Below, in pieces: positions 908-1,471 of a stretch of 7,910 bases of DNA (within the stretch, counting starts at the first letter, position 1; each line of letters begins with the position of its first letter). The notes beneath the pieces are model-generated. The model was given only the letters and a program-made list of their open reading frames with translations, was not told where the DNA came from and ran no database searches. Where the stretch lies: positions 1-7,910 of the IMG/VR virus record IMGVR_UViG_2663763009_000009, one strand, 5' to 3'. A program made the position numbers and the translations under genes. Origin of the DNA: a virus. Taxonomy: Duplodnaviria > Heunggongvirae > Uroviricota > Caudoviricetes.

Positions 908-1471
908 TTAAAACCGCATCAACCGCTCCACCAGTTGCTCTTTACGGGCAACGATCCACCCGTGTTGCTCCAGATAAAATTTAAACCGTTCCAGAGTACA
1001 TACCATCGCATCGGCGGGTACCTTTTCCGTGAACTCAACCTGACCGTGTTTATCGAAGTGGCTCAGTAATGCGCATCCATCATTTTCGATAGATGTGTTT
1101 TGTGCCGCTGGTGGCTGTTTCTGGTTGAAATAACAGTCTTCCAGTTTTTCGAACACTTCCCACGCCTGATCGGTTTCGAGCATTTTGGCGTGACGGGCTG
1201 CGCCACGTTCTGTCCAGAGGATGAGGGAGCGAACGTTACGGGCAATTTTCACAGAAACTCTTAAAGAGTTTTCGTTCTTCAACTCTCGTAACGCATCACC
1301 TTCTATCAGGAAAAAATGTTTACCTTCTATAAACCGTTCTTTGTTTCGATTGAAATTGTTTGTCAAACGCTGGCGCTCTGTTCCGTACAAATCAGCCAGC
1401 AGCTCTGTTGTCATGACAGGAAGATGGTTATGCGTAAGTGACGGGAGTTTTTCAATAGACGTGCGATTCAT
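908..1471 (-). CDS. ORF6N-domain (Roi/antirepressor-like) phage protein, 187 aa
   Basis: The six-frame ORF is 908-1669, but its first 64 codons look non-coding. The ATG at 1471 has an AAAGGA Shine-Dalgarno about 8 nt upstream; an ATG at 1477 is an alternative. The N-terminal half (LPVMTTELLADLYGTERQRLTNNFNRNKERFIEGKHFFLIEGDALRELK ... LILWTERGAARHAKMLETDQAWEVF) matches the ORF6N/KilA-N-type DNA-binding pattern from memory; the C-terminal 80 aa is unassigned. Confidence 0.7.
   Translation of the reverse strand: MNRTSIEKLPSLTHNHLPVMTTELLADLYGTERQRLTNNFNRNKERFIEGKHFFLIEGDALRELKNENSLRVSVKIARNVRSLILWTERGAARHAKMLETDQAWEVFEKLEDCYFNQKQPPAAQNTSIENDGCALLSHFDKHGQVEFTEKVPADAMVCTLERFKFYLEQHGWIVARKEQLVERLMRF

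Follow-up and report, generated by a model that had tools for sequence, protein, structure and literature searches.

The closest characterized relative of the gene described here is anrP (STM2616/SL2578) of the Salmonella prophage Gifsy-1, which lies after antQ, the small RNA (sRNA) IsrK and a small open reading frame (ORF), 'orf45' (Hershko-Shalev et al. 2016, PMC4825925). Transcription that runs past the IsrK terminator produces an isrK-orf45-anrP-isrJ mRNA, but this mRNA is not translated (280 vs 4 Miller units). IsrK provided in trans increases anrP translation 139-fold, and overexpression of AnrP raises the level of antQ-operon mRNA and induces Gifsy-1. The same authors pointed out that IsrK resembles seqA of P4 and that STnc1160, an ~80-nucleotide (nt) species from 'orf45', resembles CI RNA (all PMC4825925). 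In this work, we analysed a 7,910-nt stretch of a Caudoviricetes virus (positions 1 to 7,910 of the IMG/VR record IMGVR_UViG_2663763009_000009), hereafter called the window. It harbours on its minus strand a gene for an ORF6N-domain protein of 187 residues (ATG at 1471, stop at 908-910). Judging from sequence comparisons and by analogy with the described systems, this gene is likely to code for an AnrP-family, antirepressor-like prophage inducer guarded by two stacked antisense-RNA modules of the P1-immI/P4-CI type. The inducer function itself would, by analogy, be that of AnrP.

The immI region of P1 is annotated in the order promoters, a1, b1, c4 RNA, a2, b2, icd and ant1/2. In P1, the loop of the second hairpin contains b' (UCACUAAC) and the next junction contains a' (CUGUCAA); both match the flanking sites, and b2 abuts the Shine-Dalgarno (SD) sequence of icd. 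P1 C4 and P4 CI are cut from their transcripts by RNase P. ORF6N is one of the predicted DNA-binding domains that make up the KilA-N/Bro-N/Rha or 'Bro' network. C4 and isrK matches were found beside genes of that network in satellites in a 2023 paper (PMC10111431), and the Rfam models of C4 and isrK detect CI and seqA relatives (PMC10111431; PMC4825925). Thus, the kind of system is already known from these two studies.

The third RNA family to be considered, sRNA-Xcc1, has been viewed differently. Its founder, from Xanthomonas campestris, is described in papers that cite it as integron-encoded, trans-acting and controlled by HrpG/HrpX. A Xylella paper also treats sRNA-Xcc1 RNAs as trans-acting, and its own table has Xcc1, isrK and C4 side by side. 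A paper on APSE phages records only the adjacency of sRNA-Xcc1 to an ORF6N gene. In the searchable literature, we found no description of sRNA-Xcc1 as a C4-like cis regulator of ORF6N genes.

The first-pass annotation of the window had identified the gene product as an ORF6N-domain protein, in agreement with its Pfam match (PF10543, residues 13-97, E 8.8e-21, 74.4 bits vs a gathering cut-off of 27.8, profile positions 5-86 of 86). The protein also matches PHROG 2379 ('anti-repressor') end to end (E 4.4e-85, residues 2-187 on profile positions 3-187 of 187). It has thousands of relatives in a large protein database, the top one being 99% identical and labelled Shigella sonnei, and others of equal length in E. 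coli, Salmonella, Citrobacter and E. albertii showing 64-94% identity. Among annotated phages, the best full-length match is STM2616 of Gifsy-1 (tblastn, 49.5% over 97% of the query; BLASTP, 49% identity over 184 of 187 residues, E 6e-58). The family is a common, already annotated one with a single characterized relative, AnrP. No Pfam match at E up to 1 was found to the Bro-N/Rha or ANT (KilAC) domains of Roi and classical Ant proteins; Roi of phage 2851 has Rha and ANT domains. Homology to P1 Ant was considered and rejected (BLASTP E 6.3): P1 Ant1 contains only PF03374 (KilAC/ANT), and the 187-residue protein only ORF6N. Genes labelled 'KilAC antirepressors' on P1-like plasmids of E. coli gave a 78% nucleotide match, but these turned out to code for ORF6N-KilAC hybrids, not for P1 Ant. 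For comparisons, we collected 160 further loci from one-genome-per-species contigs and IMG/VR, chosen by two peptide patterns with up to 80 loci per collection; the fractions given below are descriptive only.

The stretch between the late antiterminator gene Q and the ORF6N gene, passed over in the first reading, is not empty; its 370-nt 'intergenic' part holds an IsrK RNA, a C4 antisense RNA and an sRNA-Xcc1-type RNA. The Rfam models isrK, c4-a1b1, C4 and sRNA-Xcc1 all match above their gathering thresholds (GA), on the strand of the ORF6N gene. The module that touches the gene, hereafter module 2, comprises the following elements.

1706..1678, minus strand: sigma-70 promoter of the ORF6N gene, TTGACA-17-TACATT
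1667..1659, minus strand: site a1x, GCUCAAAAC, in a hairpin loop
1655..1649, minus strand: site b1x, UCGAAAG
1642..1615, minus strand: leader hairpin CCACA..UGUGG followed by U7, a terminator-like attenuator as read from the sequence
1592..1509, minus strand: second C4-like antisense RNA, 84 nt, sRNA-Xcc1 family (Rfam RF02221, 77.4 bits, GA 53, full model)
1542..1536, minus strand: b'x loop, CUUUCGA
1533..1525, minus strand: a'x junction, GUUUUGAGC
1511..1505, minus strand: site a2x, CUCAAAA
1487..1481, minus strand: site b2x, UCGAAAG, overlapping the SD sequence AAGGA (1483..1479)

The junction GUUUUGAGC is complementary to the 9-mer GCUCAAAAC upstream and to the 7-mer CUCAAAA downstream. Similarly, the loop CUUUCGA is complementary to UCGAAAG on both sides, the downstream copy lying on the SD sequence, 7 nt before the ATG at 1471. 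Folded alone, the stretch encompassing a2x, b2x and the SD sequence (1511..1479) is unstructured. A sigma-70 promoter of the form TTGAC..-10 precedes a1x in all Xcc1-type loci inspected, and the leader hairpin with its U-run recurs in relatives. We built our own covariance model of the Xcc1-like RNA from ten sequences, with which the copy of the window scores 103.9 bits. A search of 94 sources with this model revealed 41 copies. Nearly all of them end 35-60 nt ahead of the start of an ORF6N gene, and the genera represented include Serratia, Photorhabdus, Pectobacterium, Yersinia, Xenorhabdus, Arsenophonus, Sodalis, Chromatiaceae and Accumulibacter. The RNA of the window matches the sRNA-Xcc1 family above threshold over the full model. 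Unlike the founder as described, it is complementary to the SD region of an ORF6N gene that follows 35-60 nt further on, and this also applies to the RNAs of 38 other loci.

Module 1 lies upstream, directly after Q.

1947..1918, minus strand: IsrK sigma-70 promoter, TTGACC-18-TATATT (consensus scan, 10/12 matches)
1924..1872, minus strand: c4-a1b1 (RF03163, 50.1 bits, GA 46.7)
1911..1835, minus strand: IsrK-type small RNA, equivalent of P1 a1b1 and P4 seqA (Rfam RF01394, 77.5 bits, GA 50)
1886..1880, minus strand: site a1, UUGGAAC, in the loop of IsrK hairpin 2
1871..1865, minus strand: site b1, GAGACCG
1856..1840, minus strand: IsrK terminator, a terminator-like hairpin
1809..1726, minus strand: C4-type antisense RNA (Rfam RF01695, 71 bits, GA 45)
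1768..1761, minus strand: C4 b' loop, UCGGUUUC
1754..1748, minus strand: C4 a' junction, GUUCCAA
1722..1716, minus strand: site a2, UUGGAAC, 4 nt past the 3' end of C4

The -10 box of the IsrK promoter ends 7 nt before the first base of the isrK model, and transcription is predicted to start where the model match begins. The first-pass annotation had taken this promoter and the hairpin at 1856..1840 for PR' and tR'; both elements are present, but the pair is the promoter and terminator of IsrK. The promoter core TTGAC..TCCGGGGCTATAtT is kept upstream of isrK in all loci, with or without Q. The extended -10 element TCCGGGGCTATAtT is near-invariant before isrK, and the spacer between the -35 and -10 boxes groups by Q family, as would be expected of a Q-binding element. 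In relatives, the interval from Q to the lysis genes contains no further candidate late promoter. The promoter at 1947..1918 is a candidate Q-modified late promoter.

The C4 RNA of the window has a predicted minimum free energy of -44.9 kcal/mol (z -5.0). Its junction GUUCCAA is complementary to both a1 and a2 (UUGGAAC), and its loop CGGUUUC pairs with b1 (GAGACCG) through one G.U pair. We found no b2 site with an SD sequence downstream of C4 in the window, and the b2 site of C4 is missing from all loci with the Xcc1-like RNA, which we call the three-RNA form (loci L011-16, L097-103 and L132-135). By blastn over all loci, isrK is found at ~-245 and C4 at ~-140 before nearly every full-length homologue. 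Gifsy-1 and E. coli loci contain isrK and C4, and Salmonella loci of the L011 type have all three RNAs, like the window. In both the C4 of the IsrK module and the Xcc1-like RNA, the last element is a closing stem with CACC(C) after it, as in P1 C4; these ends are suggestive of RNase P processing. Without b2, SD sequence or gene, a state shared by every locus that has the Xcc1-type module, the intact IsrK/C4/a2 set (1716-1911) may be a relic or a trans-acting immunity RNA.

The complementary sites of the window were identified with a simple script that, on P1 immI, recovered a' and b' together with a1, b1, a2 and b2; the co-variation of such sites was then analysed across loci. The 54 distinct C4 contexts comprise 12 a' variants and 19 b' loop variants. 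The 7-nt a' has a perfect complement upstream in 53/54 contexts and within 30 nt downstream in 51/54, vs 1.3% and 1.5%, respectively, in controls using a' taken from other loci. For the C4 loop, complements of 6 nt or more are found upstream in 41/54 contexts and downstream in 48/54 (controls 7% and 16%). In the two-RNA form, the downstream site of the C4 loop is located on the SD sequence of the ORF6N gene, and in Gifsy-1 the C4 loop CGGUGAU faces AAUCACCGGAGGG..AUG.

The Xcc1-like RNAs show 25 loop variants and 19 junction variants in 39 distinct contexts. A complement of the loop of at least 6 nt is present at +19..+29, beside the SD sequence (b2), in 38 of the 39 contexts, and it reaches at least 7 nt in 31. 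The loop also has a complement upstream (b1) in 36/39, and the junction has one upstream (a1) in 33/39 and downstream (a2) in 34/39. The controls for these RNAs gave 10-17%, values that are inflated since related loops share sub-strings. Their structure is conserved, with 96% pairing and both-sided compensatory changes at 19 of the 22 pairs, vs 29-53% pairing in shifted-register controls. Natural compensatory pairs include CUUUCGA/UCGAAAG (window), CUACUGA/UCAGUAG (L135) and CUACUUG/CAAGUAG (before antB of phage 2851), as well as UUUCUA/UAGAAA with GUUAUCAGC/GCUGAUAAC in L092.

The locus of the window resembles that of Gifsy-1 in several respects. Both code for full-length homologues of equal length with 49% identity, composed of ORF6N and a small C-terminal domain (C-domain), directly after a Q-type antiterminator. 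In both, Q is separated from the gene by a C4-type RNA and by an IsrK equipped with a promoter and a terminator of its own, and a tRNA follows downstream. In contrast, Q belongs to PF06323 in Gifsy-1 and to PF06530 in the window, and the window has the extra module 2, which is the one that touches the SD sequence; the b2 site of C4, located on the SD sequence of anrP in Gifsy-1, is missing from the window. The window also has no orf45-type ORF overlapping the start (AUGA coupling): no ORF of at least 20 residues ends at 1470-1468, and the nearest, in another frame, ends at 1498. A search for IsrJ downstream of the ORF6N gene gave no match at E up to 1. In the Gifsy-1 locus (L002, 5854-5937 and 5938-5995), the frame published as 'orf45' starts within the 5' arm of the C4 match of Rfam and continues through it, and the C4 loop CGGUGAU is complementary to AAUCACCGG at the anrP SD sequence. 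Based on these sequences, the published effect of IsrK in Gifsy-1 could be read as titration of the C4-type RNA.

Like the immI regions of P1 and P7, the window has a C4-family RNA in the leader of the controlled mRNA, on the same strand, with a two-part recognition by loop b' and junction a', copies of the target on both sides, and b2 on the SD sequence of the first gene. Unlike them, it codes for a protein unrelated to Ant1, it has no icd-like coupled leader gene, it is located in a lambdoid late region and not beside a C1 operator, and its modules are two and stacked. With the CI RNA/seqA-seqC system of P4 and the CA RNA of N15, the locus would share, by analogy, a processed leader RNA that pairs with flanking sites, and as in P4, terminator-like hairpins follow the upstream sites. 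Nevertheless, the outcome in P4 is the premature termination of transcription of replication genes, whereas the downstream site in the window is on the SD sequence, which points to a translational block as in P1.

The Stx2c phage 2851 (locus L178) harbours both module types with their genes (RNA modules, antA and antB at 936-1121, 1174-1926, 3240-3500 and 3501-4178). Its antA and antB genes both code for ORF6N proteins and are found between ninB and roi/ninG, upstream of Q. In that phage, isrK and C4 precede antA, and a promoter, a1x/b1x, an sRNA-Xcc1-type RNA and b2x on the SD sequence precede antB, in the same module order as in the window. The differences are the location in the nin region, the presence of antA, of which nothing is left at the equivalent position in the window, and the AntB protein, which ends in P22_AR_C and shares 54% identity with the 187-residue protein over residues 1-157 only. 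From these sequences, phage 2851 probably represents the parent arrangement, and the window looks like that pair minus its first gene, moved after Q.

Homologies, RNA family matches, complementarity and co-variation form the basis of the following scheme, from which we infer RNA processing, a translation block at this locus, and the activity and target of the protein. The promoter after Q would give rise to a short IsrK RNA carrying a1 and b1 and ending at its own terminator. Read-through would generate transcripts with the C4-type RNA and a2, but the b2/SD partner of this module is absent, as is the gene that it presumably once controlled. In module 2, the sigma-70 promoter would drive synthesis of a transcript composed of the a1x/b1x leader and its hairpin, the Xcc1-type RNA, a2x/b2x and the ORF6N gene. 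By analogy with P1 C4 and P4 CI, the Xcc1-type RNA would probably be excised from this transcript, and it would then pair via a' with a2x and via b' with b2x, covering the ribosome-binding site, with no protein made in the lysogen. Translation would be released once the antisense RNA is titrated, either by an excess of a1/b1 leader RNA or by massive read-through driven by Q. The expression of lytic genes would then be promoted by the protein, in the manner of AnrP in Gifsy-1.

Several observations weigh against this interpretation. In a region as large as this one, chance alone would produce about two complementarities of a single 7-mer, and the case therefore rests on the overall pattern and on co-variation. 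The leader hairpin at 1642..1615 is weak by energy (z 0.96) and was missed by a terminator scanner, and for the Xcc1-like RNA on its own, the stability of the fold does not clearly exceed that of shuffled sequence (z -1.6). As module 1 lacks a b2 site, half of the apparatus may be a relic. The early region of the prophage is broken by an IS2 insertion sequence (TnpA/TnpB, minus strand) and an adjoining IS21-family element (IstA/IstB, plus strand), and the window contains no repressor gene. The C-domains of AnrP and of the 187-residue protein are only ~25% identical, and the target of the latter may thus differ from that of AnrP. As for Gifsy-1 itself, its authors explained their results by the orf45 leader peptide and refolding of the mRNA, and they left unresolved whether AnrP binds a repressor or directly activates transcription (PMC4825925).

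The protein is composed of the ORF6N domain (residues 13-97), an invariant helix motif, a disordered linker (residues 113-130) and the small C-domain (residues 131-187). The end of the ORF6N domain and the next helix, LILWTERGAARHAKMLETDQAWEVFEKLEDCYF, are nearly invariant across the family. As stated in the first-pass annotation, the C-terminal ~80 residues correspond to no recognized domain: the last 70-80 residues have no significant Pfam or NCBIfam match, and a structure search identified no neighbour, nor was any sequence relative found in the PDB. AlphaFold2 predictions for the full protein, based on 58 sequences, gave predicted local distance difference test (pLDDT) scores of 81-92 for the N-domain, <50 for the linker and ~65 for the C-domain. 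With a more diverse alignment of 30 sequences, the C-terminal 72 residues yielded a mean pLDDT of 79.6, with a core at 85-94. The fold of the C-terminal 60 residues is predicted with confidence, with secondary structures in the order strand-strand-helix-helix (residues 133-139, 145-152, 160-170 and 177-186). The C-domain occurs in several sequence subtypes that have little more in common than a G-[WYF]-x-V motif and a hydrophobic pattern. It is also found after Rha-type N-domains (P0126, P0128; hit H77), at the C-terminal end of PHROG 995, and as a stand-alone domain in PHROGs 25059 and 340. When the C-terminal 82 residues and a 21-sequence C-domain profile were used to search protein databases, only short fragments and two Rha-family entries were retrieved, with no full architectures, a result that confirmed the shuffling of the domain. 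By its sequence distribution, the C-domain, to which no function is assigned, is one of the shuffled modules of the Ant/Bro/Rha network.

These features bear on a first alternative, namely that the protein is a DNA-binding transcription factor, an activator or a secondary repressor, that acts directly on phage promoters and does not inactivate a repressor. ORF6N is part of a network of predicted DNA-binding domains, and the N-domain is confidently folded and near-invariant when the C-domain is variable. Nevertheless, no match to a solved DNA-binding fold was found, and the RNA gating is the same as that of the true antirepressors of P1. We consider this possibility rather unlikely; it concerns the last step only and is otherwise compatible with an RNA-guarded, AnrP-type inducer.

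The position of the gene was the main argument of the first-pass annotation, which regarded an Ant-type gene in the late operon, after Q and before the tRNAs, as unusual cargo. The position itself is correct (Q at 1952-2359, tRNAs at 718-408, same strand). However, the post-Q site is the usual home of the Gifsy-1 AnrP/PHROG 2379 family. A Q-type antiterminator gene ends 272-504 nt upstream (median 294) in 39 of the 62 distinct loci that have a full-length homologue and enough upstream DNA; 17 of these Q proteins belong to PF06530, 18 to DUF1133 and 4 to PF06323. In the other 23 loci the neighbours vary, with integrase, lambda P, tail genes and chromosomal genes among them. For relatives that share the N-domain only, Q precedes the gene in 12/71 loci. 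Exact-sequence look-ups of two relatives gave the gene orders RusA-Q(PF06530)-ORF6N-...-holin in E. coli and DUF1133-ORF6N-holin-lysozyme in Salmonella, and the order in Gifsy-1 is Q(PF06323)-AnrP-tRNA-Arg. Thus, location after Q is the rule for this family, not an anomaly. The notion that Ant-type genes reside in the nin region holds for distant ORF6N relatives, antA and antB of phage 2851, but not for close full-length relatives, and the neighbourhood analysis gave no sign of a rearrangement artefact that would have moved the gene out of a nin-region context typical of its close relatives. In three loci (L123, L128 and L129, ~2606-3730), the isrK-C4-ORF6N set is preceded, at a distance of ~280 nt, by the end of a lambda-type integrase gene, a context that resembles the helper-embedded or phage-inducible islands described in PMC10111431.

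A second alternative is that the gene is a moron in the strict sense, i.e. self-contained cargo that the repressed prophage would express to the advantage of the lysogen, for lysogenic conversion, superinfection exclusion or anti-defence. The gene does have its own conserved sigma-70 promoter (1706..1678) and a strong terminator (832..811) inside the late operon, as noted in the first reading. The interval between Q and the lysis genes is also a known site for accessory genes, where relatives have tRNAs, a DNA methyltransferase or AraC-type genes, and IsrK and the RNA downstream of it are detectable in uninduced, stressed Salmonella (PMC4825925). However, with an antisense RNA predicted over the ribosome-binding site, an own promoter does not imply that the protein is made in the lysogen. 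The SD sequence would pair with a conserved, co-varying antisense loop, and basal translation of anrP in Gifsy-1 is close to nil despite transcription (4 vs 280 Miller units; PMC4825925). The sole homologue tested induces its prophage and does not protect the host. We therefore find a strict moron quite improbable. PADLOC gave weak matches (E 1.4e-7 and weaker) to the defence candidate PDC-S05, which could be taken in favour of such a role, but that family is unvalidated and only the ORF6N domain is shared. Among the roles envisaged in the first-pass annotation, the antirepressor-type one was a reasonable guess, and lysogenic conversion or anti-defence finds no more than these candidate matches.

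The other features of the locus are as follows.

5882-7851, plus strand: IS21-family element
4460-5733, minus strand: IS2; the two elements are directly upstream of the DnaB-type helicase gene
2956-4344, minus strand: DnaB-type helicase gene
2699-2956, minus strand: 85-residue ORF of no known family, between the helicase gene and RusA
2328-2699, minus strand: RusA
1952-2359, minus strand: late-gene antiterminator Q, 135 residues (Pfam PF06530, E 2.7e-52)
480 nt: gap between Q and the ORF6N gene
908-1471, minus strand: gene for the AnrP-family ORF6N protein, 187 residues
832..811, minus strand: strong intrinsic terminator of the ORF6N gene, 8-bp stem and T-run
408-718, minus strand: four tRNAs in the late transcript, 3' of the ORF6N gene, with anticodons CAT (Met/Ile2-type), TCT (Arg), TGT (Thr) and TCC (Gly)

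The product of the 85-residue ORF is a predicted coiled coil with no Pfam or NCBIfam family, and PADLOC returned only weak noise for it. The tRNA with the CAT anticodon is labelled tRNA-Ile in E. coli VL7S7, a strain that has an additional 65-residue ORF and a DNA methyltransferase gene between the ORF6N gene and the tRNAs. In the loci of relatives that were checked, tRNAs are near the ORF6N gene in 8/31, and they consist of subsets (Thr and Gly, or Met/Ile and Arg) or are absent.

The start codon of the ORF6N gene was assigned to the ATG at 1471 rather than to that at 1477, because AAGGA (1483-1479) is 7 nt upstream of the former and the relative L022 lacks the first ATG. Upstream of this start, the frame is open for 66 codons (1472-1669), across the Xcc1-like RNA. 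An ORF of 253 residues starting at 1669 was rejected as the gene, since it crosses a terminator-like hairpin and a structured RNA and would begin at the predicted transcription start. The in-frame extension to 1669 is probably non-coding, and public gene calls of 215-217 residues for relatives (P0118, P0006) that reach into the RNA are probably annotation artefacts.

Lastly, that the gene is an inert remnant of a decaying prophage riddled with insertion sequences and kept through a clonal host lineage is highly improbable, for even though IS2 and an IS21-family element occupy the early region, module 1 lacks its b2 site and gene, the 99-100% identical copies are Shigella sonnei-type records and only 8 complete E. 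coli genomes have a copy that covers at least 80% of the gene, the ORF is intact, as are the promoter, RNA, terminator and four target sites of module 2, and the same architecture, with compensatory changes, is found again in prophages of Salmonella and E. coli whose proteins are 66-70% identical.

If the gene is an RNA-guarded inducer of the AnrP type, the widespread 'hypothetical ORF6N protein' found after Q would be part of an RNA-gated inducer module with one characterized relative, AnrP, and three separately annotated Rfam families, isrK, C4 and sRNA-Xcc1, would be joined in one P1-like control circuit. What is new here is that the RNA layer touching the gene belongs to a family that has not been recognized as an immunity RNA in the searchable literature. 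This calls for caution when sRNA-Xcc1 matches are interpreted as trans-acting virulence sRNAs, and with gene calls that extend ORF6N genes through the RNA. Our analyses provide exact base-pairing predictions together with natural compensatory variants.

A broader proposal, in which we place somewhat less than even confidence, is that sRNA-Xcc1 might represent a second lineage of cis-encoded immunity RNAs of the P1-C4/P4-CI type, endowed with an address code, and that the orphan IsrK/C4 set might act on other prophages. In that case, each copy would have a private two-part address (a' and b') that matches its flanking sites and the SD sequence of the adjacent ORF6N antirepressor-like gene. The address variants would then form a specificity code that sets, in trans, which inducers of co-resident prophages are kept silent and which are released. 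Several lambdoid prophages coexist in enteric pathogens such as Shigella, E. coli and Salmonella, and the way in which these prophages trigger one another affects toxin release and gene transfer.

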